Below the pieces are notes generated by a model that saw only the letters and a program-made list of their open reading frames with translations, did no database searches and had not been told where the DNA came from. A program made the position numbers and the translations under genes. 64,000 bases of DNA. Origin: Clostridia bacterium (lineage in GTDB: Bacteria; Bacillota; Clostridia; Oscillospirales; UBA644). Positions within the stretch are counted from its first letter, which is position 1. Every line of letters begins with the position of its first letter. The stretch is taken from the NCBI GenBank assembly GCA_017427285.1, contig JAFRTE010000007.1, positions 134,035 through 198,034 on the forward strand, written 5' to 3'. Shown here in pieces: positions 5,248 to 33,347 of the stretch.

Positions 5248-5323
5248 CGGGGTGTAGCGCAGATGGTAGCGCGCTTGGTTCGGGACCAAGAGGTCGCAAG
5301 TTCAAATCTTGTCACTCCGACCA
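5248..5323 (+). tRNA. tRNA-Pro (anticodon CGG), CCA encoded
   Basis: Cloverleaf folded by hand. Acceptor CGGGGTG/CACTCCG, anticodon stem CTTGG/CCAAG with loop TTCGGGA, T-loop TTCAAAT, 3' ACCA. Confidence 0.9.
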
Positions 5324-13810: not shown

Positions 13811-13897
13811 GCGGGTATGGCGGAATTGGCAGACGCGTTAGATTCAGGTTCTAATGGCCGCAAGGTTGTACAGGTTCAAGTCCTGCTACCCGCACCA
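13811..13897 (+). tRNA. tRNA-Leu (anticodon CAG), long variable arm, CCA encoded
   Basis: Acceptor GCGGGTA/TACCCGC, anticodon stem TTAGA/TCTAA with loop TTCAGGT, T-loop GGTTCAAGTCC, 87 nt. Confidence 0.9.
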
Positions 13898-16225: not shown

Positions 16226-17806
16226 CTAAAAGAGCGAAACGTATTTATGGAGCGTTTTTCGGACTGCGCCGACGCCGGAAAACAGTTCCGCCGCCATATT
16301 TTCAATGCGGCTGCCGATAGGCGTTTCGTAAAGGTTTACCCCGAAAATATCTTCCCTTGAATACAAAGCTTTGAGGCAGGACATATCCTGAGGATCGGAA
16401 AGAGACAGCGGAGCTACAATCTCCTGCAGCTGCAAAAGCAAAGGATCGGGAGACGGTGTAAAAGGATTTCCCTCGTCGTCGATCCCCTTTAAATACCTTG
16501 CATATCCCGCAAGCGCAAGAGGGATCATTACGAGCTTTTCCGTGTCAAGTCCGCGGGAAAGATATTCCTTTATCGTTTCGCCGAAACGGATGGGGATTTT
16601 TTGAGAAGTATCCGTTGCTATCCTCTGAGGAGCATCGGGAATAAACGGGTTTGGAAGACGTTTTGTTAAAACTGCGTCGATAAAATCCGAGGGACGGATA
16701 ATTCCCGGGTCCGTAACGACGGACATTGCCTCGTCATAGCCCATTTTCGTAATAAACACGCGGATATCGTCGTCACTCATCTCGTCCGAAATACGGGTAT
16801 ATCCGAGAAGACAGCCGTATATAGACATTGCGGTATGAAGCGGATTAAGACATGTGCATACCTTCATTCGTTCAACCTTTTCGACCGTTTCCCTGTCTGT
16901 AAAAAGGACTCCGCCCTTTTCCAGAGGAGGACGGCCGTTTACATATCGATCTTCAACAACGAGATATTCGGTTTCTTCGGCATTTACAAACGGAGCGGTA
17001 TACGTATTTTTTGACGTTACGATCATTTCGCTGTCTTCAAAGCCGGAATCGATAAGCATTTTACGAACCGCAGCGTCGGGGCGAGGCGTGATCTTGTCGA
17101 TCATAGACAACGGGAATGAAACAGTATTTTCATCACTGAGCCAGTCATTAAAACCCCTGGAAACAAGACCTGATTTTACCCATGCATCGGCGTAGGCAAG
17201 AATGCCGCTGCGCAGCTTATCGCCGTTATGCGAACAGTTATCCATACTTTGAAGCGTAATAGGATAACCGCCGGCCTTCCAGCGTTCAAGCAGCAGACAT
17301 GCGGTTTTACCCATCATCGAGCGAGGAGAAAGTCCGCAGTTAAAATCGTCTTTGTTTACTCCGTAACCCTTTTCGGTAATCGTAAAGCTTACCATCTGCA
17401 AAGAGGGGTTTGCGAATATTTCGGTTAGTCTGCTCCAGTCTTCCGAAAAGCTGAAATCCGCCTTCAAACTCTCGGTAACGGACGCTATAACGCGTTTTTC
17501 AACTGTTCCGTCTGCTTTTAGGACCGCAAGAAGACTGAGGTCGTCATACGGGCGGTATACTTTGTCAATTATCTCGTAATCGAAGCCCTCAGCTACGATC
17601 ACTCCCCTATCGTATTCACCGCTTTCAAGCAATCGCTGAAGCAGCGCGGCAGGAAAAGCGCGAAAAATATTGCCCGCGCCGAAATGAATCCATGCAGGAT
17701 TTTTATGGGTGTTTTCTCGAATGGACAGTATATCGAAAGAAGGGATTATTATCCCGCATTTTGCCCACTCTTTTATGTTTTTCAGCTCTGACAGATTTAA
17801 TTTCAT
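16226..17806 (-). CDS. uxuB: Mannitol dehydrogenase-family oxidoreductase, probably fructuronate reductase
   Basis: N-terminal HFGAGNIFRAF dinucleotide motif. 4-nt overlap with the upstream uxuA. Confidence 0.7.
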   Translation of the reverse strand: MKLNLSELKNIKEWAKCGIIIPSFDILSIRENTHKNPAWIHFGAGNIFRAFPAALLQRLLESGEYDRGVIVAEGFDYEIIDKVYRPYDDLSLLAVLKADGTVEKRVIASVTESLKADFSFSEDWSRLTEIFANPSLQMVSFTITEKGYGVNKDDFNCGLSPRSMMGKTACLLLERWKAGGYPITLQSMDNCSHNGDKLRSGILAYADAWVKSGLVSRGFNDWLSDENTVSFPLSMIDKITPRPDAAVRKMLIDSGFEDSEMIVTSKNTYTAPFVNAEETEYLVVEDRYVNGRPPLEKGGVLFTDRETVEKVERMKVCTCLNPLHTAMSIYGCLLGYTRISDEMSDDDIRVFITKMGYDEAMSVVTDPGIIRPSDFIDAVLTKRLPNPFIPDAPQRIATDTSQKIPIRFGETIKEYLSRGLDTEKLVMIPLALAGYARYLKGIDDEGNPFTPSPDPLLLQLQEIVAPLSLSDPQDMSCLKALYSREDIFGVNLYETPIGSRIENMAAELFSGVGAVRKTLHKYVSLF

Positions 17807-18906
17807 TGCCGTCTCTCCTTACAGATAGATTCCCAAAGTCCGCATATATACGCTGCGCCGAGCGCGCGGTCGTAAAGTCCGTAACCCGGCATTGCCTTTT
17901 CGCCCCAGATCATGCGTCCGTGGTCGGGACGAACGGGACCGCAAAAGCCGATATCGTAAAGAGCGCCCATAATATCGTGCAGATCAAACGTTCCGTCTTC
18001 GGAAAGATGCGCGCTTTCCTCGAAATCTCGCATTCCGTTGTTGAAGCGAAGGTTGCGGACGTGAGCAAAGTGGATTCGACCTTTGAGCATATGGATAGTA
18101 TCTACAAGATCGTTTTCAAGGTTCGTTCCGTATGAGCCGGTGCAGAAAGTAACGCCGTTATGAGGATTTGGTACCATATCCATCATACGTTTTAGCTTTG
18201 TTTTGTCCGATATTATGCGCGGCAATCCGAAAACGCTCCATGCGGGGTCGTCGGGGTGAATTGCCATATTGATATCGTATTTATCGCAAACGGGCATTAT
18301 AGCTTCAAGGAAATATTTCAGATTTGCAAAAAGCTTTTCCTCGTCAATATCGGCGTAAAGACTGAAAAGCTCCTTTACGCGAGCCATTCGTTCGGGTTCC
18401 CAACCGGGCATTACGGAATCGTTCATATCTCCGTGGATCGATTCAAACATCTTTTCCGGATCGAGCGCGTCTATTTTATCCTGACTGTATGCAAGGACAG
18501 TGGAGCCGTCCGCTCTTGGTCTGCTGAGGTCTGTTCTTGTCCAGTCGAAAACAGGCATGAAATTGTAGCAAACCATATGTATATCTGCCTTGCCGAGATT
18601 TTCCAGCGTTTTGATATACGCGTCAATGTCTTTGTCCCTTTCTGCGGAACCGACTTTGATAGCGTCGCTGACGTTTACGCTTTCTATGCCTGCGAGAGTA
18701 AGGCCTGCGTTTTCGATATGTTTTTTCAGCGCAAGTATTTCATCAGAATGCCATAGCTGACCGGGAAGTTTATCCATTAAAGTAGTGATTATTCCGGTGA
18801 CGTATCGAGTCTGCCGTATCTGCTCAAGCGTTACGGTATCGAAGCGCGGTCCGTACCAGCGCATTGTCATTTGCATTGAGGGTTTAGGAGAAATGTTTTC
18901 AGACAT
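17803..18906 (-). CDS. uxuA: Mannonate dehydratase
   Basis: UxuA-type N-terminus MQMTMRWYGP. The start at 18906 has GGAGG 6 nt upstream; the ORF-track start is 18942. Confidence 0.85.
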   Translation of the reverse strand: MSENISPKPSMQMTMRWYGPRFDTVTLEQIRQTRYVTGIITTLMDKLPGQLWHSDEILALKKHIENAGLTLAGIESVNVSDAIKVGSAERDKDIDAYIKTLENLGKADIHMVCYNFMPVFDWTRTDLSRPRADGSTVLAYSQDKIDALDPEKMFESIHGDMNDSVMPGWEPERMARVKELFSLYADIDEEKLFANLKYFLEAIMPVCDKYDINMAIHPDDPAWSVFGLPRIISDKTKLKRMMDMVPNPHNGVTFCTGSYGTNLENDLVDTIHMLKGRIHFAHVRNLRFNNGMRDFEESAHLSEDGTFDLHDIMGALYDIGFCGPVRPDHGRMIWGEKAMPGYGLYDRALGAAYICGLWESICKERRQ

Positions 18907-18954
18907 TTTTTGCCTCCGTATAGAAGTTAAAGAAAATTTCAATTAAATCAGGTT

Positions 18955-20772
18955 TTATTTTGCGGGAATCCATACGGTCATATCCGTTTCGCCGCGGTTT
19001 TCCATACCGTAATACGGGATAAATTTAAGTTTTCTCGGTCGGAACATACGTTTATCCGCGGGATAATACAGAGCGTCGTTTTCACAGATTTCGTATCCGC
19101 TGCAATTTATGACCGGCAAAGAGAAATACGGATCGGGAGTTATTTCAAAATCCGCGTCAAGGTCCGCATACAAAGAGAAAATATCGCCTTCATTGTCAAC
19201 ACCTTCGAGGCAGTAGACTATCGGGCCGTATTGCAAAGCGACTTTGCCGATATTTTCGTGAATTGACGAAGATGCCACAAACTGCGGTCTGATATTGAAA
19301 TCAATGTCAACAGATGAAATGTCGGTAAAATAAGCGTAGCCGTCTTTCATTGTATATTTTTCGGATGCGCGGAAATTGCGGCACCAAGACGGAACACGAA
19401 GAGCAATATTTTTGTATCCGCTTGTCTCGATTTTTACTTTTCCGTTTGAAGGATAATCCGTGATCTGCTTTACGGTTTTGCCGTCAAAAGACGTTTCGGA
19501 GTTAATATACTGATGCACAAACAGGGTCTCGGCATCGTCGGTATAAAGGAAATCGGCGATCGACGCTATAAATCTCAGTATATTCGGAGGACAGCAGGAA
19601 CAACCGAACATTTTTACTCTCTGTGTGATCGGATAACGCTCTTTTTCTGCTGTTGCTGGGTTTTTATGATGATTTTTCACTTCGATCCTGAGCGGATTTT
19701 CGTAAAAGAAATCGTCACCGTTTACAGAAACGCCGGAAATGCTTCCGTTATACATTGCAATTTCGGCAATATCACCGTATGCTCCGACGGGCTTAATCTG
19801 ATACATTCTGCGGCAGAAAAGCGCAAGCCCAATAGTGGCGCAGGTTTCGGTATACGCCGTTTCGTTCGGAAGATCGTAATCTACAGTAAAGGCTTCGCCG
19901 AGTCTTGAAGATCCAACACCTCCAGTGATATACATACGCTTTTCGGAAACGTTGCGAAAGATTTTTTCGCACGCGCTAAAAAGAGCATCATCGCTGCATT
20001 CTCTTGCCAGATCCGCCATTGCGGCACAAAGATACATTGCTCTTACGGAATGTCCTTCTGCGGTAGTTTGCTCGCGAACGGGAAGCTGATCCTGGAAATA
20101 CCACGGAGTAGTCCAATTTGCATAATGATTTTTATCTTTTTCGTTGCAGCCCTTTGAATCGATAAAGAATTTTGAAAGGTCGAGATATTTTCTGTCGCCG
20201 GTCGTATGATAGAGTTTAACGAGAGCAAGCTCTATTTCTTCGTGACCGGGAGTAACGAATGCGGCGGAACCATCTTTAACAAACACTCTGATAATCAATT
20301 CGAGGTACTTTTTCACCAACGTGAGCAGCTTATCCTTCCCGGTAGCGTGATAATAAGCCGTTGCGGCTTCAATGAGATGGCCGAGGCAGTAAAGCTCGTG
20401 ATTCATACGGTTTGTAAAACGTTTATCTGTTTCGTAAACGTTATAATAGCAGTTGTAGTACCCGTCTTCTTTCTGACTTGCGCACATATCGTCTATAAGC
20501 GCATCCGTCATGGCTTCAAGTCTTTCGTCACGGTTTTCCTCCAGATAATACGCAACGCCTTCAATCCATTTAGCGACGTCTGAGTCCCAGAAGATATGAG
20601 AATGCCAGCCCTCATTTTTCTGTTGTTCTCCGTTGCATTTCAACGCCTCGAAACGCTTTGTTTCTTTAAAACGGTCATAAACCGCATCAACGGTAACATT
20701 TTTTGAAACACGCTGTTTTTCTCCCCAGAAAGAACCGTTGATATGCGTGCAGTAAAAAGGAATCTGCCTCAT
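18955..20772 (-). CDS. Glycoside hydrolase family 127 (DUF1680, beta-L-arabinofuranosidase-like)
   Basis: 605 aa with HELYCLGHLIEAA, ETCA and CSCCPPN Cys-cluster motifs. Confidence 0.8.
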   Translation of the reverse strand: MRQIPFYCTHINGSFWGEKQRVSKNVTVDAVYDRFKETKRFEALKCNGEQQKNEGWHSHIFWDSDVAKWIEGVAYYLEENRDERLEAMTDALIDDMCASQKEDGYYNCYYNVYETDKRFTNRMNHELYCLGHLIEAATAYYHATGKDKLLTLVKKYLELIIRVFVKDGSAAFVTPGHEEIELALVKLYHTTGDRKYLDLSKFFIDSKGCNEKDKNHYANWTTPWYFQDQLPVREQTTAEGHSVRAMYLCAAMADLARECSDDALFSACEKIFRNVSEKRMYITGGVGSSRLGEAFTVDYDLPNETAYTETCATIGLALFCRRMYQIKPVGAYGDIAEIAMYNGSISGVSVNGDDFFYENPLRIEVKNHHKNPATAEKERYPITQRVKMFGCSCCPPNILRFIASIADFLYTDDAETLFVHQYINSETSFDGKTVKQITDYPSNGKVKIETSGYKNIALRVPSWCRNFRASEKYTMKDGYAYFTDISSVDIDFNIRPQFVASSSIHENIGKVALQYGPIVYCLEGVDNEGDIFSLYADLDADFEITPDPYFSLPVINCSGYEICENDALYYPADKRMFRPRKLKFIPYYGMENRGETDMTVWIPAK

Positions 20773-20924
20773 TTAAAGAAGCCCCTTTCATAATAAATTT
20801 CATATTTGAATTGTCTGATAAAAAGACAAAACCATACATATACAGTATACACCAAGTAAATGAATATGTCAACAGAAAAGTTTTGAAAAATTGATATCCG
20901 CAAACTGTTTTTTTGCGCGTTGTG

Positions 20925-20953
20925 TTGACAATTTGGAATATTTACATTATAAT
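20925..20953 (+). promoter_or_regulatory. Sigma-A type promoter of the DUF4037 gene
   Basis: TTGACA, 17-nt spacer, TATAAT, about 40 nt upstream of ATG 20994. Confidence 0.6.
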
Positions 20954-20993
20954 ATAATCGTGAATAGCGATAAAGTCCCGAAAGGATATCAAA

Positions 20994-21944
20994 ATGAACA
21001 GCGTGACGGATAAAAACAGATATTTTTACGAAAAATACGTTGCAAAGCTTATACGCGAAAGATTTTCGGAATATGAAAACAGAATTGCGGTAGGGATCGC
21101 CGGCGAAGGATCGGACTGTTTCGGGTATGACGACGAAATATCGAGAGATCACGATTTCGGGACAGGCGTCTGTCTTTGGCTGACTGATGATGATATGAAG
21201 CTTTTCGGATATCAGCTTTCGATAGCTTACAATGAACTTGTGGACAGCAAGTCGCGTTCTTATTATACCGACAGACTTCGCAACAGACGTGGTGTTATGA
21301 CGATACACGGTTTTTACTCGGATATCCTTCAGATCGACTGCGATACGGAAAACTGCGCTTTAACCGAAAGCGACTGGTACAGACTTGACCATTCATGTCT
21401 GAAAACAGCGACGAACGGAGAGGTTTTCCGCGACGACCTAGGGGTCTTCACTAATTTTCGTAATTATCTGCTCAGTTACTACCCTGAAAAGATATGGAGA
21501 AGAAGGATCTCAGAGCAGCTGCATGAATACGCTTCATCCATTCAGGTAAATTACGCGAGATGTATGACGAGAAAAGATATCGTTGCTGCGGAGCTGTGCA
21601 AGGCAAGAGGGATAAACGCTGCTATGGAACTGTTTTTCCTTCTCAGCCGAGAATATCCTCCGTATTACAAATGGAAATACAGAGCTCTTTCGGACCTTGA
21701 CAAGGACGGAAGTTTTTCGGAGAAAATAGGAGAGCTTGCGTCTGAAAACATCAGTATTCAGGCGTGGGAAGATACAAAGTACCGTCCGAACAGACTGAAC
21801 TATAAAGACAGAATAGTGTCTGTATCGGAAGAGATCGCCTCCGAAATCGAACAGATGATGATAAAAAAAAGGATGACTCAGGCAAAAGGAAGATATCTGG
21901 AACTGCATGTAGACGCTGTTTTAAATAATAACGGCACAAAATGA
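20994..21944 (+). CDS. DUF4037-like (nucleotidyltransferase-associated) protein
   Basis: 316 aa. The N-terminal GIAGEGSDCFGYDDEISRDHDFGTGVCLWL segment recalls DUF4037 proteins, judged from memory. Confidence 0.55.
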   Translation: MNSVTDKNRYFYEKYVAKLIRERFSEYENRIAVGIAGEGSDCFGYDDEISRDHDFGTGVCLWLTDDDMKLFGYQLSIAYNELVDSKSRSYYTDRLRNRRGVMTIHGFYSDILQIDCDTENCALTESDWYRLDHSCLKTATNGEVFRDDLGVFTNFRNYLLSYYPEKIWRRRISEQLHEYASSIQVNYARCMTRKDIVAAELCKARGINAAMELFFLLSREYPPYYKWKYRALSDLDKDGSFSEKIGELASENISIQAWEDTKYRPNRLNYKDRIVSVSEEIASEIEQMMIKKRMTQAKGRYLELHVDAVLNNNGTK

Positions 21945-21987
21945 ACTGCGATTTAGGCGTTCTCTCCTGCCCCGACATCGGTTTATT

Positions 21988-22041
21988 ATGCTACTTACTG
22001 TCTTTTTTTGCAACTTACTGCCTTAAAAATGCAACTTACCG
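21988..22041 (+). repeat. Three direct 13-nt repeats (consensus wTGCaACTTACyG) at 20- and 21-nt spacing
   Basis: Copies at 21988-22000 (ATGCTACTTACTG), 22008-22020 (TTGCAACTTACTG) and 22029-22041 (ATGCAACTTACCG), directly upstream of the 22051 promoter. Confidence 0.7.
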
Positions 22042-22050
22042 ATAAAGGGG

Positions 22051-22079
22051 TTGACGAATCGCGGTTTTCGGGTTATACT
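22051..22079 (+). promoter_or_regulatory. Sigma-A type promoter pointing toward the RT 3' end, antisense to the 17-codon ORF
   Basis: TTGACG, 17-nt spacer, TATACT. Confidence 0.55.
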
Positions 22080-22126
22080 ATAATCACAAAAGACAAACCG
22101 ATTATGAATAATTCGATTTTTTTCAT
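22073..22126 (-). CDS. 17-aa hydrophobic peptide MKKIELFIIGLSFVIIV (candidate type I toxin-like or small membrane peptide)
   Basis: AAGGAGG lies 7 nt upstream of the ATG at 22126. Two Lys residues are followed by an uninterrupted hydrophobic stretch. It is too short for the ORF track. Confidence 0.4.
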   Translation of the reverse strand: MKKIELFIIGLSFVIIV

Positions 22127-22185
22127 ATATTTTCCTCCTTTCTTAATGTTAGACGAAAAGCTCCGAGCAGTATCGGAGCTTTTTT
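22086..22185 (+). ncRNA. Predicted ~100-nt antisense RNA covering the 17-codon ORF and its SD
   Basis: Bounded by the 22051 promoter and the plus-oriented terminator at 22156-22185. No plus-strand ORF with an SD is present. Confidence 0.4.
22156..22185 (+). terminator. Intrinsic terminator with T6 run on the plus strand; also lies 3' of the RT gene
   Basis: AAAAGCTCCGA, loop gcagta, TCGGAGCTTTT, followed by TT. Confidence 0.7.
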
Positions 22186-22195
22186 GTTGCAGGAA

Positions 22196-23404
22196 TTAAT
22201 CGGATTTTTGTTTTCTGCGCGAATAGTATTCGTGAACGAGGCATTTATAGCCCAGATTTTTAATGTCTTCGTATCTGACATCAAATCGGGCTTTTGTATG
22301 TTTTCCTTTAATAAGATAGCGTATACAGTCCTGTGCGTAGCGGTCGATTTCGCAAAGACTCGCGGACGTGCTTATCACGGGGAAAAACCAGTCGCTCCAG
22401 CAAAGCTCGTTATCACGGGCGTTTTCGAGGAGTTTTCGGTTGAATACGCGGATAAACGCCTTTGCTGCGCGTTCGCCCGAAGCTTCGCTCCTGTCTTTCC
22501 AACGTTTTAAGGCGTCACGTTTTCTTCGCATTTTCTGTTTCAGTTTTTTGACCGTTGCGGGCGCAATATCAACATAAGGTCCTTTGCAGAAAAAACCGAG
22601 GAACGTAAAGCCCTCGCCGGGAGACGTAAATACTTCTTTTGAAGGATTTACGGACAGTTTATGAGAGGATAAAAAAGCTTTTATGTAGTCCGCATAAGCA
22701 AGGACGGTTTCTTTATCCTTTGCGAAAACGATGATATCGTCGGAATACCTGGCATATATTATCTTTTTTTCATAAAAATATCCGTCGAGCTTATAAAGAA
22801 AGAGATTTGCGAAAAAGGAGGAAAGCGGAGTCCCGGCCATGATACCTTTTTTTTCCGATACGGTCTTTCCTTTGTCTGAAACGAGAGGTTCTTTAAGCAG
22901 AGATATCAAAAACGCCAAAAGCTCGGGATCTTCCGCACAAACGTTTTCGAGCATAGGAAGAAGGAGATCGACCGGTATGGAATTGAAATAATCGCTGATA
23001 TCGACTTTATATGAATAACAGGCATCTAAATATCGGTGTTTAAGCAGATACCTCACAGCATCCTTCGCGGTCCTTTGAGGGCGGAAAGAATATAGGTTCG
23101 GAGAAAAAAGAAAGTCGTATTTCCTTAAAATCAGCCACGTCAGCAGCTTTAAAACGGTATTTTCGTCATCAGGATAAGTATAAACGACGCGTTTCTTTTC
23201 CGAGCCGAGTTTGCTTATAACCGATTTGACAGGCAACGGAAACGGTTTTCCGTTTATGATATTTTCAGCAACGGGAATATAACGCTTTGCATCAATAAAC
23301 GCCCGAAGCTCGGATACAAATTGCTTAGGACTTGCAAGAGACTGTTTGTATAAATAAAACCGTTCCCATACGGATTCATCCGACAGGAGATAGAGAAGTG
23401 ACAT
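22196..23404 (-). CDS. Stand-alone reverse transcriptase (RNA-directed DNA polymerase), non-intron, non-DGR
   Basis: 402 aa. RT motifs YSFRPQRTAKDAV, YKVDISDYFNSI, GTPLSSFFANLFL, YARYSDDIIVFA and FTFLGFF. Helical thumb-like C-terminus. Confidence 0.9.
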   Translation of the reverse strand: MSLLYLLSDESVWERFYLYKQSLASPKQFVSELRAFIDAKRYIPVAENIINGKPFPLPVKSVISKLGSEKKRVVYTYPDDENTVLKLLTWLILRKYDFLFSPNLYSFRPQRTAKDAVRYLLKHRYLDACYSYKVDISDYFNSIPVDLLLPMLENVCAEDPELLAFLISLLKEPLVSDKGKTVSEKKGIMAGTPLSSFFANLFLYKLDGYFYEKKIIYARYSDDIIVFAKDKETVLAYADYIKAFLSSHKLSVNPSKEVFTSPGEGFTFLGFFCKGPYVDIAPATVKKLKQKMRRKRDALKRWKDRSEASGERAAKAFIRVFNRKLLENARDNELCWSDWFFPVISTSASLCEIDRYAQDCIRYLIKGKHTKARFDVRYEDIKNLGYKCLVHEYYSRRKQKSD

Positions 23405-23414
23405 TTAAATCTAC

Positions 23415-23558
23415 CAAAAAAAGCAGAAAGAAAAGACGTTAAATCCCGTAAATTACGGGATGTACAAGACCGTACACGGACATGCTGCCTGCGAAGCCGT
23501 TTTTCCGTCCGTGCCGGGTCCGCCGCAGGCGCAAAGCGTTTTCTTTCTGCTTTTAAGC
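23415..23558 (-). ncRNA. Candidate RT-associated structured ncRNA (retron msr-msd-like or DRT template-like)
   Basis: ORF-free region. A 16-nt perfect inverted repeat (23554-23539 with 23434-23419) encloses 104 GC-rich nt containing 7-8-bp stems. Its own promoter lies upstream. Confidence 0.55.
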
Positions 23559-23565
23559 ATATATA

Positions 23566-23574
23566 ATTATATCA
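23566..23574 (-). promoter_or_regulatory. Extended -10 promoter element TGATATAAT for the ncRNA/RT transcript
   Basis: The TGA is the stop codon of the 171-aa ORF. TATAAT is at 23571-23566. The inverted-repeat arm begins about 12 nt downstream. Confidence 0.5.
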
Positions 23575-24087
23575 GCCATTCAGCACATTGCGCATACGGC
23601 TGACAACATATGCGCGCGTGTTCCACCAACCCTCATGGTTATAGTAAAAGCGCAGATAACCGATGTTTGCGTTTTTGCAGTCGCTGCGCAGTTTATATGC
23701 AGAACAGGATTCCGGCATCAGTTCAACGACAAGGATCTTTCCCGCCGCGCCGTAAAAAGAGTAAACGATCCTTCTTCCGCCGCGAAGTATTTCTTTTTCA
23801 TAACAGTATGAAGAAAACTCGGAGTTGAAAATCGATTCGAAATACTGTGTGAAAGAACCGTTAAAATTAAACTGGTTTTCTTCATCAGGCATATTTTCGC
23901 CCCATGATAATCCTGACGATGAAGCAGAAGACACCTGCCTTGCGGCGGGAGCGACGGAAGAAGCTGTATTCTGACTGTTTTGAGTCGAGGTATTTTGCTG
24001 CGTATTTCCGAGAAGTCCCGTTAAAAAATCCTTCGCCGCTTTTTCGGCTTTTTTATCTCCGCCGAGAAGTTTTGACAGTAAGCTCAT
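23572..24087 (-). CDS. Hypothetical protein: low-complexity Q/S/T-rich N-terminus plus ~100-aa C-terminal globular domain
   Basis: 171-aa ORF immediately upstream of the ncRNA/RT on the same strand. I recognise no family. Confidence 0.6.
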   Translation of the reverse strand: MSLLSKLLGGDKKAEKAAKDFLTGLLGNTQQNTSTQNSQNTASSVAPAARQVSSASSSGLSWGENMPDEENQFNFNGSFTQYFESIFNSEFSSYCYEKEILRGGRRIVYSFYGAAGKILVVELMPESCSAYKLRSDCKNANIGYLRFYYNHEGWWNTRAYVVSRMRNVLNG

Positions 24088-24144
24088 AGTTTTTCCTTTC
24101 TGTAAATTCGGTAAGAGTGTGATTTTTCCAAAGTATAATCGGTA

Positions 24145-25326
24145 TTATAATTTTTCAAAAATAAGATGGGATATTTCCCCGAAAATTGTGCATTCCCGAG
24201 ATTTTTCGGTCAGTACGGTCTCCTTGCCGTCCGCGACGATTTTCTGATGAGTAAGATTTCTTGCAAGGACCGTAGGATATTCGGGGCGAAGGTCCTTTTC
24301 GGGCGGCCTTCGTAAATTTGTGATTTCAAAACCGTCGCAATGTTCCTCGGCAACTATCAGGTTAGTTGAATCGAAGGCGCCTTCGGTAAAATAAAAAGTG
24401 CAGTCCGATATTTTTACGTCGGAAACGTTGCCAACGCCGTTAGGCGCACTTTCCTCCTTAAAAAGAGGAGTTCTGCAATATCTTGCGGCATCCATATTTA
24501 TTCCGTTGCAGCGACAGCCCGCAGTGATATTTTCTATGCGGATATGCTTTATCGGAGATGTAACGGAAGCGAACCTGATTGCCGAATGGCAATCTTCGGC
24601 ATAAATATTTTTACAAACGATATTTTCTATCGGTCCGCATGCAAGACCTCTGTTTTCGTGTCTGAAAAGAGAGTCGTCTGCATTGAAAGCGAGAAGATCG
24701 TCGTTTGTCTGTCCCTTCACGAGCGCTCTGATATTTTCGACAACTCCGTCGCGGCAATATCCGCCGAAATGGATGCCGTCCTGGTTAGGACCAAGTGTAT
24801 CGGAGGTCAAACCTATATTTTTCAGTTCAAAACCGCGGACCCTGCTGAGCCGGATATAAAATGCCATTGAATTTGCAACAGTAAGATTTAAAAGTCTGAG
24901 ATTTTTTACGGTAACGAAATTTAAACATGCGCAGCTTGCCGCGCCGATTTCGTAAAGGTCGCGCGGTTTAACATTAAATTCTCTTCCTAAACCTCCGTCC
25001 CAGACGCCGCCCTCAACGGTAATATCTTCGTTGCCGTCCTCTTCGTCGGAATTTGTCAGGAGAAAATCGCCCTGAACAGGCTTTCTTTTATAAACAAAAA
25101 TGATCCTTGCGTCAGAATCTGCATGAATATGCCTGTGAGAAGGAATTTTTATAGCGTCGTTTACGATATATGTGCCTTTAGGGATAACGATATCTTTTTC
25201 TCCGAAGTCAAGCGCCGCCTGAATTGCGGGCTGATCGTTGGCAATGCCGTCGCCTTTTACGCCGAAATCAAGGATATTGATCATTTTCGGTAGACCTTTC
25301 TTTGCATAAATATAGATTTTTTTCAT
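24145..25326 (-). CDS. Right-handed beta-helix protein of the pectate-lyase superfamily (GH28-related)
   Basis: N-terminal INILDFGVKGDGIANDQPAIQAAL motif. An alternative start at 25284 is possible. Confidence 0.65.
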   Translation of the reverse strand: MKKIYIYAKKGLPKMINILDFGVKGDGIANDQPAIQAALDFGEKDIVIPKGTYIVNDAIKIPSHRHIHADSDARIIFVYKRKPVQGDFLLTNSDEEDGNEDITVEGGVWDGGLGREFNVKPRDLYEIGAASCACLNFVTVKNLRLLNLTVANSMAFYIRLSRVRGFELKNIGLTSDTLGPNQDGIHFGGYCRDGVVENIRALVKGQTNDDLLAFNADDSLFRHENRGLACGPIENIVCKNIYAEDCHSAIRFASVTSPIKHIRIENITAGCRCNGINMDAARYCRTPLFKEESAPNGVGNVSDVKISDCTFYFTEGAFDSTNLIVAEEHCDGFEITNLRRPPEKDLRPEYPTVLARNLTHQKIVADGKETVLTEKSRECTIFGEISHLIFEKL

Positions 25327-25519
25327 ATACTGTTTTCTTAATAATATAATAAATGGTTTGATTTGTCAAGTATTTTGCTGAAAAAATAAGGAAAAACGGA
25401 ATAATTCGCCGATAAATCGCCTTTGTGGAAAAAAATTTCATATAAAAGTAACGAAATTACTCTAAAATTATGATAGAATATATGAGCAAAATTTTGATTG
25501 AATCGATGATTTTGAAAAA

Positions 25520-26368
25520 ATGAGAATAATAGAAAACAAAAACTTTCCCAACGAAAGAGACCTCTACGGAGAAAGCGGACTTATACTTAAAAACTGCACG
25601 TTCACCGGTGAAGAAGACGGCGAGTCCGCGCTGAAAGAGTCAAGAGACATAACGCTTGAAAAATGCGTTATGGATCTCAGATATCCTTTATGGCACGACA
25701 GAAACGTTGTTTTGAAAGACTGCGAAATGACTGAAAAATGCCGCGCCGCCCTCTGGTATTCTGAAAACATTGAGATCTACGGCGGCAAAATGTTCGGAAT
25801 AAAAGCATTGCGCGAGTGTGCTGATATAACAATGAAAAACGTTACGGTAAATTCACCCGAATTCGGCTGGAGAAGTAACGGCATAAAAATCGAAGAATGC
25901 GATATAACCGGCGAATATCCTTTTTTTGAGGCGAGCGGGTTAAAGTTTGACAGAGTAAAGCTAACGGGTAAATATTCATTGCAGTATACGCACGATATTG
26001 TTATAGAAAACTGCGTATTTGATACGAAAGATTCTTTCTGGCATGCAAAAAACGTTACGGTCAAAGACAGCATAATAAACGGCGAATATCTGGGCTGGTA
26101 TTCTGACGGATTGACGCTTGAAAGATGCAGGATAAAAGGGACTCAACCGTTTTGCTACTGCAAAAACCTTACGCTTATAGACTGTATAACGGAAGATGCC
26201 GATCTGGCGTTTGAGTATTCGGACGTTAATGCGACCATAAACGGAAATATCGTATCGGTCAAAAATCCCCGCAGCGGGAATATCACTGCCGACAGCATAG
26301 GCAAAATAATATTAACGGACAACAGCAAGTATGAATGTAACTGTAAAATAACAGTACGAAAAGAATAA
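25520..26368 (+). CDS. DUF3737-like beta-helix repeat protein
   Basis: 282 aa with periodic repeats (xxC/NxTF, LKDCxM, IENCVF). Family recalled from memory. Confidence 0.5.
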   Translation: MRIIENKNFPNERDLYGESGLILKNCTFTGEEDGESALKESRDITLEKCVMDLRYPLWHDRNVVLKDCEMTEKCRAALWYSENIEIYGGKMFGIKALRECADITMKNVTVNSPEFGWRSNGIKIEECDITGEYPFFEASGLKFDRVKLTGKYSLQYTHDIVIENCVFDTKDSFWHAKNVTVKDSIINGEYLGWYSDGLTLERCRIKGTQPFCYCKNLTLIDCITEDADLAFEYSDVNATINGNIVSVKNPRSGNITADSIGKIILTDNSKYECNCKITVRKE

Positions 26369-26373
26369 AAGTA

Positions 26374-26408
26374 ATCCGCACGGAATTAGCACCGTGTGGA
26401 TCTTTTTA
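26374..26408. terminator. Hairpin terminator between convergent genes
   Basis: ATCCGCACGG / CCGTGTGGAT stem with one G-U pair, followed by CTTTTTATTT. Confidence 0.6.
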
Positions 26409-26669
26409 TTTCGTTTTTTTGAATGTTCCGGCAATTATGAAAGACAATATAAGCAAAAGTATAATCGCAAAAAGAAAAACAGCGCCTTTTTTGATATCAA
26501 CATCGAGTTTAATGCTGATTTTTTCCGATAAAAAATCCGAAAAGGATCTTGTACGTTCGGCTGTATTTTTATTATCCGAGACATCCAAATAACCGCCGCG
26601 AATTTTTGAAAATACCGAATCGGTGATATTTCCGATGGTATCGTAAAGCACACTTAAAAGTTTATTCAT
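26406..26669 (-). CDS. Small C-terminally anchored membrane protein, unknown function
   Basis: 87 aa with C-terminal TM AVFLFAIILLLILSFIIAG. Last gene of the ffh-trmD operon. Confidence 0.55.
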   Translation of the reverse strand: MNKLLSVLYDTIGNITDSVFSKIRGGYLDVSDNKNTAERTRSFSDFLSEKISIKLDVDIKKGAVFLFAIILLLILSFIIAGTFKKTK

Positions 26670-26678
26670 AAAGACACC

Positions 26679-27377
26679 TCACTTTTTTGATTTTTTAAGA
26701 TATCTTCTGTATAGGTCCCCTCGCCTCTGGCGGGTGATTTCAAGTGATTTTTCAAGTTTCCATTTTGCTATAAGCGCGTGATTGCCGTTTTGAAGCACCT
26801 GAGGCACTTCGAGCCCCTCATAAACCGGAGGACGGGTATACTGCGGATGCTCGAGAAGACCGGAATATATGCTTTCGTCTTCGTAGCACGAACTGTCCGC
26901 AAGAACGCCCGGAACCATTCGTGAAACTGCGTCCACGACAGCCATTGCGGGTATTTCGCCACCCGTAAGGACATAATCGCCCAATGATATTTCTTCATCT
27001 ACGATCAAGTCTATTGCGCGCTGATCAAGACCCTCGTAATGACCGCACAGGAGAGTGATATTGCTTTTTTTTAAAAGAGATTTTGCTTTGAACTGAGTGA
27101 ATTTCTTTCCTTTCGGAGACAGATACACGCAGTAAGTATCGGGGACGGCGCTTTTAATATGATTGAAACAGTCGCAAACGGGCTGCGGCTGCATCACCAT
27201 ACCTTTTCCGCCGCCGTAGACATAATCGTCAACGCGATTGTGTCTGTCTTTTGTGAAATCGCGGATATTATGACAGACTACTTCTATAAGTCCCGCTTTT
27301 CTTGCTCTTCCGATTATGCTTGAAGAAAGAAAAGCGTCAACCTCTTCGGGGAAAAGAGTCATTATATCGAATCTCAT
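26679..27377 (-). CDS. trmD: tRNA (guanine37-N1)-methyltransferase
   Basis: N-terminus MRFDIMTLFPE plus LCGHYEGLDQR and GGEIPAMAVVDA motifs. GAGGA lies 5 nt before ATG 27377; the ORF-track start is 27392. Confidence 0.92.
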   Translation of the reverse strand: MRFDIMTLFPEEVDAFLSSSIIGRARKAGLIEVVCHNIRDFTKDRHNRVDDYVYGGGKGMVMQPQPVCDCFNHIKSAVPDTYCVYLSPKGKKFTQFKAKSLLKKSNITLLCGHYEGLDQRAIDLIVDEEISLGDYVLTGGEIPAMAVVDAVSRMVPGVLADSSCYEDESIYSGLLEHPQYTRPPVYEGLEVPQVLQNGNHALIAKWKLEKSLEITRQRRGDLYRRYLKKSKK

Positions 27378-27378
27378 T

Positions 27379-27879
27379 TCAATCCTCGTCAAACAGTCCG
27401 TTCAAAGGTCGGATCTTCATGATCTTTTTTTCAATATCTGTTTCGGTTATGACCTGTTTTATTGCCGGGATCATTCGAACCGTACCTTCGGAGTCGGTGA
27501 TCTCGTAAACGTCGTTTGCGCCTGTTTTAAGCACATCCGTGATAGTACCGTAATTTTTTCCGCTGTCGGCGTCTATGACATTGAGCGTTAAAAGGTCTTT
27601 AATAAAATACTCTCCTTCTGCAAGAGAGAAGAAGCTTCTTTCGACAAATATTATTTTGTTTCTGAGAAGTTCGGCTTTGTTAAGGTTGTCAATTCCGTAG
27701 AATTTATACAGGATATTGGACTTGTGTATTCTTGCGTATTCGATATCGAATCTGTGTCCGTCTATAAAGACGTATTCGAAATCAAGCATTATCTCGGGGC
27801 TGTCAGCCCAGGGTTGAACTTTTACTTCTCCGTTTATACCGTGTGTGCCGACGACCTTACCGGTTTCTATGAGATCCAT
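27379..27879 (-). CDS. rimM: 16S rRNA processing protein RimM
   Basis: GKVVGTHGINGEVKV motif. Position between the KH protein gene and trmD. Confidence 0.9.
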   Translation of the reverse strand: MDLIETGKVVGTHGINGEVKVQPWADSPEIMLDFEYVFIDGHRFDIEYARIHKSNILYKFYGIDNLNKAELLRNKIIFVERSFFSLAEGEYFIKDLLTLNVIDADSGKNYGTITDVLKTGANDVYEITDSEGTVRMIPAIKQVITETDIEKKIMKIRPLNGLFDED

Positions 27880-27891
27880 TTCCAGTCACGC

Positions 27892-28122
27892 TCACAGAAT
27901 ATCGATATTGATTTTTTCGCCTGTTTTGGCTGCGGCAGCTTTAACTACCTGACGGATCGCCTTTGCAACCCTGCCCTGCTTGCCTATAATGAAGCCCTTG
28001 TCTTCGTTTGCAACAGTAAGATTGTAAATAACGGCGTCTTCACGCATATCGCCCTTTTCGACCTTGACGGCGTCGGGATTGTTTACGAGTCTTTTAACAA
28101 TATACAAAATCAATTCTTCCAT
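27892..28122 (-). CDS. KH-domain RNA-binding protein (YlqC family)
   Basis: 76 aa with the GIIIGKQGR-type motif FIIGKQGRVAKAIR. AAGGAA SD lies 8 nt upstream of 28122. Confidence 0.85.
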   Translation of the reverse strand: MEELILYIVKRLVNNPDAVKVEKGDMREDAVIYNLTVANEDKGFIIGKQGRVAKAIRQVVKAAAAKTGEKINIDIL

Positions 28123-28229
28123 GATAAGTATTCCTTTCTTAAAAAAAGAAGACATCACAATGCACAATGCATATTCCCGCTTTTTACAACGGAATTACGC
28201 ATTATGCATTGCGTATAACGGCATCTGAT

Positions 28230-28472
28230 TTACATTATGCCGTTCTTTTTGAATAAAGACTTGACAGTGTCTGTAGGCTGAGCGCCGTTCTTTATCCACT
28301 GGTTAGCTTTTTCCGCGTCGATCTTTACTTCGGACGGTTCTGCGAGGGGATTGTAAGTACCTATCTCCTCAATGAATCTGCCGTCTCTCGGAAAACGTGA
28401 ATCTGCGACAACAATGCGGTAGAAAGGAGTCTTTTTTGCGCCCATTCTGCGAAGTCTGATTTTTACAGCCAT
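28230..28472 (-). CDS. rpsP: 30S ribosomal protein S16
   Basis: N-terminus [30 protein letters not shown]. Confidence 0.95.
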
Positions 28473-28525
28473 TGAATTCACCTCTTTCGTGTTTGTTGGT
28501 ATGTTAAATATTTGGAACGCTTAAA

Positions 28526-29842
28526 TTATTTAAATCTGCGTCTGAACGCCGGAGTATTCATCTGCTTCATCATGGATTTCATCTGATCGAAGCTTTTAAG
28601 AAGACGATTGACGTCTTCAACTCTTGTGCCGCTGCCTGCCGCAATCCTGCGTTTTCTTGACGGAGTGATGATATCCGGACGTTCCCTTTCCTTCTTTGTC
28701 ATGGAAAGAATCATCGCTTCCGTTCTGGCAAGCTGACGTTCGTCTACTGAAAGATCCTGTTTGGCAAGCTTTGAAGCTCCGGGGATCATTTTAACAAGAT
28801 TGTCGAGAGGACCCATGGTCTTCAGCTGACGCATATTGTCGAGAAAATCATTGAAATCAAAGCGGTTTTTCATGATTTTCTTTTCGAGCTCCGCCGCCTT
28901 TTTTTCGTCGAAGGTCTGCTCGGCTTTTTCAATGAGGGTAAGCACGTCGCCCATGCCGAGGATCCTGGACGCCATTCTGTCCGGATGGAACTGTTCGAGA
29001 TCCCCCATTTTTTCACCGGTACCGATGAATTTTATTGGTTTGCCGGTCGTATGCTTAACCGAAAGAGCCGCGCCGCCGCGGGTATCGCCGTCTGTTTTCG
29101 TAAGAAGTACGCCCGTAATATCAAGGATATCGTTAAACGATTTTGCAACGTTTACGGCGTCCTGACCCGTCATAGCGTCTACGGTAAGGATGATCTCATT
29201 GGGCGAAACCGCCGTTTTGATATCTGATAGCTCCTGCATCAGCGCTTCGTCTATATGCAAACGTCCTGCGGTATCGAGAAAAACTATATCGTTTCCGTGG
29301 TCTTTTGCAAACGCAACCGCCTGTTTTGCAATTTCTACGGGCGGCGTGCCTTCCGGCATTGTAAAAACGGGAACGCCGATCTTCTCTCCGAGATACTGCA
29401 GCTGAAGAATAGCTGCCGGTCTGTAAATATCGCATGCGGCAAGCATCGGACGTTTGCCCATATTTTTGAAAAACAGCGCAAGCTTTGCGCAATGGGTAGT
29501 TTTACCCGCGCCCTGAAGTCCGCACAGCATAACGACTGTGGGAGGATGGGACGATAATTTGATGCGGTCGTTTTCGCCGCCCATAAAAGCGGTAAGCTCT
29601 TCATTTACTATCTTGATGACCTGCTGGGCGGGAGTTAAACTTTCGAGAACGTCAGCGCCGGTCGCTCTTTCGCTGACGGAGGCGACAAAGTCTTTGACGA
29701 CGTTGTAGTTTACGTCTGCGGAAAGAAGCGCGAGACGTATCTCACGCATGACGGCTTTGATGTCGCTCTCGGTAAGTTTGCCGTGTGATTTTAATTTTTT
29801 GAATATCGAGCCGAGTTTTTCGGATAAACTTTCAAATGCCAT
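28526..29842 (-). CDS. ffh: Signal recognition particle protein Ffh
   Basis: GLQGAGKTT P-loop, DTAGR and TKTDGD motifs, Met-rich C-terminal M domain. Confidence 0.95.
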   Translation of the reverse strand: MAFESLSEKLGSIFKKLKSHGKLTESDIKAVMREIRLALLSADVNYNVVKDFVASVSERATGADVLESLTPAQQVIKIVNEELTAFMGGENDRIKLSSHPPTVVMLCGLQGAGKTTHCAKLALFFKNMGKRPMLAACDIYRPAAILQLQYLGEKIGVPVFTMPEGTPPVEIAKQAVAFAKDHGNDIVFLDTAGRLHIDEALMQELSDIKTAVSPNEIILTVDAMTGQDAVNVAKSFNDILDITGVLLTKTDGDTRGGAALSVKHTTGKPIKFIGTGEKMGDLEQFHPDRMASRILGMGDVLTLIEKAEQTFDEKKAAELEKKIMKNRFDFNDFLDNMRQLKTMGPLDNLVKMIPGASKLAKQDLSVDERQLARTEAMILSMTKKERERPDIITPSRKRRIAAGSGTRVEDVNRLLKSFDQMKSMMKQMNTPAFRRRFK

Positions 29843-29846
29843 GTTA

Positions 29847-30242
29847 TCAGTTCTCTTCGCCGAGCGAATCGCTTGCGGTATCCATAATCTCGTTTAGTTT
29901 GTCGATGATATCGGACGGAAGAAACTTTCTCTGAGCAAAATCCTTAACGTATGAAGCGTTGCGATAGCAAACCTCAAGGGCCTGTCTTGTTGAATTGAAC
30001 TTATCGAGGAGACCGAGGCGCGCATCAGTATCGTAAAGAGTTGTTTCCGCACGCAGAAGGCTGTCTCTCACAGCCTGTCGCGTTATCGAGAGCTGCTCGG
30101 AGATTTCGGACAACGAATAGTCCTGCTGAAAATAAAGATCCATTGTCTGTTTCTGTTTTTCGGTCAGAATATTACCGTAAAGATCGAGAAGGAGACCGAT
30201 TTTGACTCTCTCTACCTCAGAAGAAACGTCTATGTTTAACAT
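29847..30242 (-). CDS. ylxM: YlxM/UPF0122 putative DNA-binding protein (sigma-70 region 4-like HTH)
   Basis: 131 aa with YFQQDYSLSEISEQLSITRQAV HTH. Canonical position upstream of ffh. Confidence 0.85.
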   Translation of the reverse strand: MLNIDVSSEVERVKIGLLLDLYGNILTEKQKQTMDLYFQQDYSLSEISEQLSITRQAVRDSLLRAETTLYDTDARLGLLDKFNSTRQALEVCYRNASYVKDFAQRKFLPSDIIDKLNEIMDTASDSLGEEN

Positions 30243-33271: not shown

Positions 33272-33347
33272 TGGGATATAGCCAAGTCGGTAAGGCACAG
33301 GACTTTGACTCCTGCATCCGCTGGTTCGAGTCCAGCTATCCCAGCCA
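33272..33347 (+). tRNA. tRNA-Gln (anticodon UUG), CCA encoded
   Basis: Acceptor TGGGATA/TATCCCA, anticodon stem CAGGA/TCCTG with loop CTTTGAC, T-arm GCTGG-TTCGAGT-CCAGC. Confidence 0.9.

Follow-up and report, generated by a model that had tools for sequence, protein, structure and literature searches.

A reverse transcriptase (RT) gene on the minus strand of contig JAFRTE010000007.1, from a Clostridia bacterium, is preceded by a structured non-coding RNA (ncRNA) whose two ends are brought together by a long terminal helix. We examined it within a 64-kb stretch of that contig, hereafter the window. Compensatory changes among homologues indicate that this helix truly forms and covaries, as part of a structured ncRNA tied to the RT. 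The core of the RNA is the RT-5 RNA of Rfam, the RT belongs to group UG26 of the class 2 UG/Abi RTs, and the gene directly upstream of the RNA encodes a protein of 171 amino acids (aa) that we call p171. The order p171 / RNA / RT is a near-constant three-part synteny, far more regular than reported before. On the comparative evidence below we favour, with moderate confidence, the reading that the RNA is a discrete, dedicated partner of the adjacent UG26 RT, which it would serve as scaffold and as template for a non-genomic cDNA.

All features of this module lie on the minus strand. The intergenic region spans 167 nucleotides (nt), from the p171 stop codon (TGA, 23574–23572) to the RT start codon (ATG at 23404). 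As a preliminary description of this DNA had claimed, the spacer is free of genes, with no open reading frame (ORF) of 50 aa or more and only chance ORFs of 20–47 aa. That description centred on a 16-nt inverted repeat, and the repeat is there: AAAAGCAGAAAGAAAA at 23554–23539 has its exact reverse complement, TTTTCTTTCTGCTTTT, at 23434–23419. The enclosed 104 nt are indeed the richer in G+C, at 59%; the arms and flanks have 18–23%, and the window as a whole has 44%. Also in place are two crossing 7-bp pairings of pseudoknot topology and an 8-bp hairpin at 23461–23443. The observation itself is thus confirmed: a structured, gene-free stretch upstream of the RT is real, and all of its motifs lie where they had been reported. 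Chance is a poor source of such a repeat: shuffling the 167 nt 1000 times produced no perfect inverted repeat of more than 11 nt, against 16 observed. RNAfold gave a minimum free energy (MFE) of −57.6 kcal/mol (z = −4.28), a value equalled by none of 200 shuffles, and the closing helix was part of the MFE structure and of the centroid alike.

Testing the stems for compensatory changes among homologous RT loci had been proposed in the preliminary description. We did so with two alignments, one made with MAFFT (A1; 30 sequences, 29 of them distinct) and one based on a covariance model (A3; 45 distinct homologues). The closing stem, which we name P0, proved to be compensated, as did the inner helices P1, P2 and P3; the pseudoknot was invariant. 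P0 is an A/U-rich purine/pyrimidine helix of 16–18 bp that pairs both ends of the RNA. Its 5′ arm (23539–23554) pairs perfectly with the 3′ arm, UUUUCUUUCUGCUUUU (23419–23434), and the covariation is shared by the two arms. Double-sided changes were seen at 12 of 18 pairs in A1 and 14 of 18 in A3, with 92.9% and 93.9% of alignment cells paired, respectively. When partners were shifted by 1–3 columns, only 38–50% of cells paired, and none of 500 shuffles matched the observed value. P0 was found in nearly every homologue, and its compensated variants include GCAG/CUGC versus ACAG/CUGU, AGAAGGAGAA/UUCUCCUUCU, GCGGAAGGAGAA/UUCUCCUUCCGC and GGCGGGGGAA/UUCCCCCGCU.

On top of P0 stands a mini-hairpin, CGC-UUU-GCG (23530–23538), whose stem is invariant. 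Some loci lengthen it, to UGCC-UUCG-GGCG (locus L027), UGCCC-GGUAA-GGGCG (L030), CGCGC-AUU-GCGCG (L008) or CGCU-UUU-AGCG (L090), observations that remain anecdotal. An alternative, in which P0 is extended by a C-G and a G-C pair over a 2-nt bulge, was tried and set aside; 20–25 of 29–45 sequences can form these pairs, with one double change, and the mini-hairpin reading seems better.

Next comes the 5′ strand of the pseudoknot, GCCUGCG (23524–23530), which pairs with CGCAGGC (23487–23493) in the loop of P2, UUCGCAGGCA. All seven pairs are present in all 29 distinct sequences, and the sole change is a C to U that leaves a G-U wobble. Because the pseudoknot is so nearly invariant, covariation can neither support nor refute this pairing. 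The crossing partner, CACGGAC (23513–23507) with GTCCGTG (23481–23475), lies within P1, a bulged helix (23507–23522 with 23466–23481) that is capped by P2 (23495–23498 with 23483–23486), the two together covering 23466–23522. Double-sided changes occur at 8–9 of 13 pairs in P1 and 3 of 4 in P2 across the two alignments. P1 also contains an invariant G-U pair, which indicates that the transcribed strand is that of the RT. The third inner helix, P3, is the hairpin AUCCCGUA-AUU-UACGGGAU (23443–23461), with double-sided changes at 5–6 of 8 pairs and 94–97% of cells paired. Between P1 and P2, an asymmetric internal loop (23499–23506) is variable. Insertions of 10–50 nt were confined to this loop (L007, L008, L010, L012, L016 and L111), and those of L007 and L008 (about 2840–2900) form an extra hairpin. 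Their occurrence in no other place suggests that the internal loop is the one tolerant site of the RNA.

An Rfam search of the whole window gave a single match other than tRNAs, a full-length match to RF03026 (RT-5 RNA) at 23431–23534 (89.7 bits, where the gathering score is 45.7; E = 1.6e-16; model positions 1–104 of 104). The match stops 26 nt short of the RT start codon, in the position beside an RT that characterises the family. RT-5 is one of the motifs RT-1 to RT-19 found next to RT genes, which were given no function; retrons or diversity-generating retroelements (DGRs) were speculated for the group (Weinberg 2017, PMC5737381). A literature search for the names RT-5 and RF03026, which left the supplement of Weinberg 2017 outside its range, found nothing. 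The Rfam model starts 5 nt past the 5′ arm of P0 and stops 4 nt into the 3′ arm; it therefore lacks P0, the mini-hairpin and a terminal U-run, all of which the RNA of the window has. The preliminary description had suggested that the RNA and its RT might be an undescribed variant. They are instead catalogued: the RNA core is RF03026, and the RT group and its tie to the family of the 171-aa protein are given in Mestre 2022 (PMC9226505). With Rfam's RT-5, the UG26 of PADLOC and Mestre, and PADLOC's RTasCOG2852 all in place, the feature is not a new kind of element, and a single Rfam or PADLOC search suffices to find it. What we add is the covarying P0 and the U-run that complete the RNA and are absent from the Rfam model, the regularity of the three-part synteny, a variant in which the RNA is an autonomous gene, and an architectural parallel with the defence-associated RT (DRT) system DRT10. 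The remaining interest lies in mechanism.

The RT (402 aa, 22196–23404) matches the PADLOC profile RT_UG26 over nearly its whole length (E = 7.1e-171, residues 1–398 on profile positions 1–397 of 398). The next-best specific PADLOC groups fall far behind, UG27 at E = 1.9e-31 and UG4 and UG17 at about E = 1e-30. UG26 is placed among the class 2 UG/Abi groups (Mestre 2022, PMC9226505), and the protein agrees with that definition, having an intact YxDD motif and no known domain in addition to the Pfam match RVT_1. The catalytic RYSDD begins at residue 219 and is kept in all 34 homologues compared, from which we read the polymerase as probably active. A second conserved stretch lies near the C terminus, LGY(K/R)xLVHxYY at residues 384–394 (residues 391–394 are HEYY; 22196–22240 in the window). 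The final YY is found in 21 of the 34 homologues, and a non-conserved tail of 5–25 residues follows the motif. This motif resembles the conserved helix and priming tyrosine or serine of DRT9 and DRT10.

For synteny we collected 36 loci with close relatives of the RT (54–83% identity) from species-representative genomes, all of them metagenome-assembled genomes or isolates of rumen and gut Clostridia. In 29 of the 36 (29 of about 32 that have upstream DNA) the RT is immediately preceded by an RT-5 RNA, 24–94 nt before the RT start. The C-terminal domain of p171 is encoded directly upstream of the RNA at 28 genome loci and 14 metagenome loci. The metagenomes were scanned with a pseudoknot pattern, itself unspecific (at least 120 loci), and then with our own covariance model, so that the breadth of the family is partly sampled. 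Starting from the RNA gave the same picture: among the matches listed there were 18 true RT-5 RNAs, and all 18 stand beside a UG26 RT and/or p171 where the contig allows. Overall, p171 is present in about 85–90% of loci and RT-5 in nearly all, as compared with the 9 of 35 UG26 members in which a co-located COG2852-like protein was reported (Mestre 2022, PMC9226505). The RNA is also the better conserved part of the locus. Its nucleotide identity to the window is 72–88% (82–88% in seven of eight loci), while the flanking genes of the same eight loci reach 56–65%, which argues for a functional RNA rather than a spacer.

In a UG26 subclade without p171 (L033, L034 and L049), two loci have the RNA apart from the RT. 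Throughout the subclade a GTG codon opens the RT gene immediately behind another ORF (RT at about 3001 in L033 and L034, and at 1227–2426 on the minus strand in L049); the preceding ORF in L049 encodes a 794-aa HD_5 (HD-GYP-like) protein. The RT-5 RNA lies away from the RT, by 2.9 kb in L034 and 4.3 kb in L049, with GH43, LytTR and DUF7010 genes between. In both loci the RNA ends at a classical terminator of its own, and in L049 it also has a promoter of its own (the 5′ end of L034 is cut off). An RNA that stays intact at a distance of 2.9–4.3 kb must be more than a leader and points to a trans-acting partner; on this sequence evidence, the partner RNA is most likely trans-capable. The RNA is also retained without p171 in four loci (L030, L049, L090 and L106).

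Two further loci depart from the usual arrangement. L028 has a UG26 RT (57% identical) and no RT-5 RNA; an unrelated leader of ~200 nt (2700–3000) stands there behind a consensus promoter, TTGACA-N17-TGGTATAAT, and the p171 homologue is inverted, 2.7 kb upstream of the RT. This leader may be a different partner RNA. L035 is decayed: at 1738–2356, p171 residues 103–159 are fused to RT residues 245–394, and the RNA and the N terminus of the RT are deleted.

Where the RNA begins and ends was judged from its flanks. The preliminary description had proposed a promoter at the upstream edge, and its extended −10-like element, TGATATAAT (TGnTATAAT, 23566–23574), does exist, overlapping the p171 stop codon 11 nt before P0. 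It lacks an acceptable −35, however, and most homologous loci with p171 show nothing comparable; it stands as a candidate RNA promoter. Loci without p171 do have promoters in this region: L049 and L090 have a consensus promoter, TTGATT-N16/17-TATAAT, 7 nt before the 5′ arm of P0, and L030 and L106 have a TATAAT farther upstream of P0. We infer that the transcript either starts at the foot of P0, from a promoter of its own, or is the last part of the mRNA from upstream.

The downstream end is marked by a run of seven U (23416–23422) that overlaps and then follows the 3′ arm and, together with P0, forms a terminator-like, probable transcript end. A T-rich tail, with 6–9 (mostly 7–9) T of the 10 nt counted round the end of the 3′ arm, is present in 24 of 30 loci, and in these the RT starts 12–32 nt past the 3′ arm. 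In the other 6 loci the tail is weak (1–5 T), and a GC hairpin distinct from P0 (−20 to −29 kcal/mol) stands between RNA and RT, followed in 4 of the 6 by a clear T-run. Strong tail and separate terminator hairpin are thus mutually exclusive (24 versus 6 loci, the 6 amounting to about four independent cases), a complementarity by which termination right after the RNA appears to be selected. P0 and the U-run are therefore predicted to end the transcript in most loci, probably by themselves forming its 3′ end. The preliminary description had allowed that the repeat might turn out to be only a terminator for the upstream ORF. Half of this holds, in that the helix and U-run very probably do also end the transcript; the conserved and covarying inner domain shows that they are not only a terminator. 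With both ends placed in this way, the RNA is most likely about 140 nt long, running from roughly 23559 to 23416.

How such an RNA might work is suggested by the class 2 systems that have been characterised. In DRT2 a 120-nt template is copied in rolling-circle fashion from a primer that is the 3′ end of the RNA (PMC12039810); in DRT9 an internal U-tract directs protein-primed synthesis of poly-dA (PMC12483538); and DRT10 makes protein-primed tandem repeats of 7–9 nt from an A-B-A′ loop (10.1101/2025.10.16.682844, 10.64898/2026.06.29.735271, 10.64898/2026.04.29.721553). ncRNA templates are used by DRT2, DRT9, DRT10 and DRT3 (Drt3a), and the same has been predicted for further class 2 members (10.64898/2026.04.29.721553). 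Since the characterised class 2 UG/Abi RTs all copy an ncRNA template, and UG26 has both P0 and a conserved C terminus, a role of RT-5 as scaffold plus template is favoured. Each of the class 2 UG/Abi RTs studied has shown unexpected DNA writing (gene assembly by DRT2, poly-dA by DRT9, telomerase-like repeats by DRT10, poly(GT/AC) by DRT3), and UG26 with RT-5 is a compact, functionally uncharacterised module of ~2 kb of the same class. The preliminary description had likened the RNA to the template RNAs of defence RTs. The neighbourhood it chose is the right one, UG26 being a class 2 UG/Abi group and stem-loop SL1 of the DRT10 RNA being end-paired too.

In the mechanism that we envisage, P0 and the U-tract would act as an intrinsic-terminator-like 3′ end, leaving the RNA in excess and the RT translated from read-through only. 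The RT would bind the RT-5 RNA and copy it into a non-genomic cDNA. P0 would take the role of SL1 in DRT10, clamping the fold and bounding the template, and priming might come from the conserved C-terminal tyrosines of the RT. p171 would be an accessory or effector component. A fuller version is offered only tentatively, as possible yet doubtful: UG26, RT-5 and p171 may form an uncharacterised tripartite RT system that writes its own non-genomic DNA from a template within RT-5, probably primed by a C-terminal tyrosine, with P0 as terminator, clamp and template boundary at once, and with a product and a trigger unlike those of DRT2, DRT9, DRT10 and DRT3. Were such a tripartite UG26 system proven to act against phages, it would be a new DRT type.

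DRT10 offers the closest parallel. Its RT is the closest characterised one by profile (RT_UG17, E = 1.1e-29, alignment extending to residue 394), and it likewise combines a small protein, an ncRNA of ~140 nt and an RT. Its ncRNA is closed by a stem that pairs the ends, as P0 does (14 of 18 pairs covarying); in DRT10 this stem, SL1, pairs the 5′ and 3′ ends, is needed for the integrity of the fold and sets one boundary of the template (10.64898/2026.06.29.735271). Both RTs have a conserved C-terminal helix and then a hydroxyl-bearing residue, which in DRT10 is the primer and comes after the helix (10.64898/2026.06.29.735271). The systems differ in RT group (UG17 versus UG26) and in partner, which is a SLATT protein in DRT10 and the COG2852-like p171 here, with no match to a SLATT model. 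The DRT10 RNA folds into a figure-of-eight of five or six stem-loops and has a 20-nt template loop with A-B-A′, whereas RT-5 is pseudoknotted and has no convincing A-B-A′; SL1 is G+C-rich, and P0 is A/U-rich at 16–18 bp.

DRT9 (UG28; PMC12483538) shares with the present module a class 2 RT, a structured ncRNA upstream, C-terminal tyrosines (the primers in DRT9; here the YY of 21 of 34 homologues) and a conserved U-tract in the RNA. In DRT9 that tract is an internal template loop, whereas the U-run of RT-5 is terminal, follows P0 and can be replaced by a classical terminator; the profile match is also weaker (E = 2.7e-24). DRT2 (UG2; PMC12039810) resembles it in having an RT of ~400 aa with a pseudoknotted ncRNA immediately upstream, and the DRT2 RNA is much more abundant than its RT mRNA (PMC12039810). 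That RNA is ~280 nt long with a loosely structured 120-nt template and an endless ORF, unlike RT-5, which is ~140 nt, tightly structured and without a conserved open frame. The Drt2 profile matches the RT of the window at only E = 2.5e-19.

Several points weigh against RT-5 as scaffold and template. No template was identified within it by tests for an endless ORF and for direct repeats. For a DRT2-like endless ORF, all sub-windows of 30 RNAs were read as concatemers on both strands, and the candidate was rejected: the frame is not conserved, unit lengths of 135–140 nt are not consistently a multiple of 3, and the whole RNA measures only about 136 nt. Open frames were common in this test in the short, G+C-rich RT-5 RNA. 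The most conserved direct repeat, GUAC-N6-GUAC, is found in 28 of 30 sequences; it is partly base-paired, its B segment pairs in the covarying P1, and in 4 of 47 sequences, these four from metagenomes, the second GUAC has become GUCA or GUAA with the first copy unchanged. A second candidate, seen in A3 with a period of 8–13 nt, matches the start of the P1 5′ strand (23499–23513) to the nucleotides just 5′ of the invariant UUCGCAGGCA (23494–23500), as in ACGG..ACGG, AUAAG..AUAAG and ACGGA..ACGGA. Its permutation p of about 0.02, uncorrected for relatedness, is marginal, and CGG/CCG-rich helices account for part of it; we keep this second repeat only as a lead. It could reflect a helix of an alternative fold, or else a repeat for template reset. 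P3 and P0 are joined by just 8–9 single-stranded nt, far fewer than in the DRT10 template loop. The sequence of P0 is conserved more than pairing alone demands, which a clamp and template boundary leaves unexplained. As a terminator, too, P0 is atypical, being A/U-rich and closing a 104-nt domain, and a scan for consensus terminators did not call it. The defence association of UG26 was inconclusive and no ncRNA was described for the group (Mestre 2022, PMC9226505), a classification paper that was also the only one returned by a literature search for UG26 as an RT group. Finally, the module sits in a housekeeping and sugar-metabolism context, neither a defence island nor a prophage.

The rival that deserves most attention, which we nonetheless consider unlikely, is a cis-acting leader or attenuator: the RNA would be a structured 5′ untranslated region in which P0 and the U-run terminate transcription before the RT, the RT or p171 might autoregulate, and nothing would be templated. 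The 12–32 nt that separate RNA and RT start in most loci, the lack of a separate RT promoter in that short spacer, and the terminator-like P0 and U-run are all as a leader would have them, and the failure to find a template also fits. But cis action is not available in L034 and L049, where the RNA, furnished with a promoter and/or terminator of its own, lies 2.9–4.3 kb off, beyond unrelated genes. The very high sequence conservation, the invariant pseudoknot and the co-occurrence of RNA and RT are typical of ribonucleoprotein partners, and all characterised class 2 UG/Abi RNAs are templates. That the repeat is nothing but the terminator of p171, with no function inside, is hardly credible. Although a helix and U-run do come directly past the p171 stop codon, and loci without the U-run have another terminator, the supposed 104-nt "loop" is itself catalogued by Rfam and holds three more helices that covary, besides the invariant pseudoknot. 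This inner part is better conserved than the neighbouring genes, and it is kept, with its own promoter, in the p171-less loci.

The preliminary description had compared the terminal stem to the a1/a2 architecture of retron msr-msd, and this comparison fails; we regard a retron, in which 2′-OH priming from a branching G would yield multicopy single-stranded DNA (msDNA), as very improbable. Terminal inverted repeats do join the ends of a structured RNA encoded directly upstream of an RT, making P0 formally an a1/a2 pair, an arrangement that is unspecific to retrons, and an invariant G lies 2 nt past the 5′ arm. The RT, however, is of another lineage. The motifs NAxxH and VTG are typical of retron RTs, and they occur in 0 of 34 and 3 of 34 homologues, respectively. 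Retron RT profiles score far under their cut-offs: those of PADLOC reach about E = 1e-16, as against 7e-171 for UG26, and NF038233 (retron_St85_RT) gives 59 bits where its cut-off is 235. The inner fold, a pseudoknotted P1-P2 and a short hairpin, has no long hairpin of the msd type. Many RT motifs had been speculated to take part in retrons (Weinberg 2017, PMC5737381). Least probable of all is the template-repeat region of a DGR or a fragment of a group II intron. DGRs were raised for some RT motifs (PMC5737381), and the best NCBIfam match of the RT is a group II intron maturase model. That match (TIGR04416) has 112 bits against a cut-off of 300, and no intron RNA model matches the window. The 64-kb window has no second copy of the region that could be a variable repeat, and no Avd-like gene was seen among the scanned neighbour genes. 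The RNA, moreover, flanks the RT on a single side and measures about 140 nt.

The third component, p171 (23572–24087), has a short motif at its N terminus, joined by a disordered linker to a conserved domain of ~110 aa at the C terminus. It matches the PADLOC profile RTasCOG2852 over its full length (E = 2.4e-58), in agreement with the association of UG26 with a COG2852-like protein (cluster 1531); Pfam and NCBIfam gave no match. The N-terminal MSLLSKLLGG is nearly invariant; the linker, ~45 residues of low complexity, varies, and after it comes the conserved domain, which AlphaFold2 models with a predicted local distance difference test score (pLDDT) above 90 at residues 60–170 as alpha-beta-beta-beta-alpha-beta-alpha. 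A Foldseek search of the model against the PDB returned nothing below E 0.07 and only weak matches to nuclease folds (EcoT38I and EndoMS; best E about 0.08). These leave a PD-(D/E)XK assignment unproven; for p171 as a PD-(D/E)XK/Vsr-type nuclease there is likewise no Pfam match, and no (D/E)xK occurs among the invariant residues. The latter are P67, E69, N71, Q72, E122, C137, R146, W154, W155, N156 and R164, without a canonical PD-(D/E)XK motif. The family comprises about 120 clusters, all annotated as hypothetical.

The neighbours of the module (16226–30242) are genes for mannitol dehydrogenase, uxuA, GH127, DUF4037, a GH28-like protein, DUF3737, trmD, rimM, ffh and ylxM, and no further genes of defence or of mobile elements were seen near the module. 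A phage or plasmid origin was considered and rejected: the exact RT-5 core was not found in IMG/VR, nor were RT relatives of more than 30% identity found among INPHARED phages or PLSDB plasmids. The window has three tRNA genes, all on the plus strand (5248–5320, 13811–13894 and 33272–33344). At eight of the homologous loci (L003, L010, L012, L016, L017, L020, L022 and L023) a tRNA gene or T-box leader lies 0.3–2 kb from the module.

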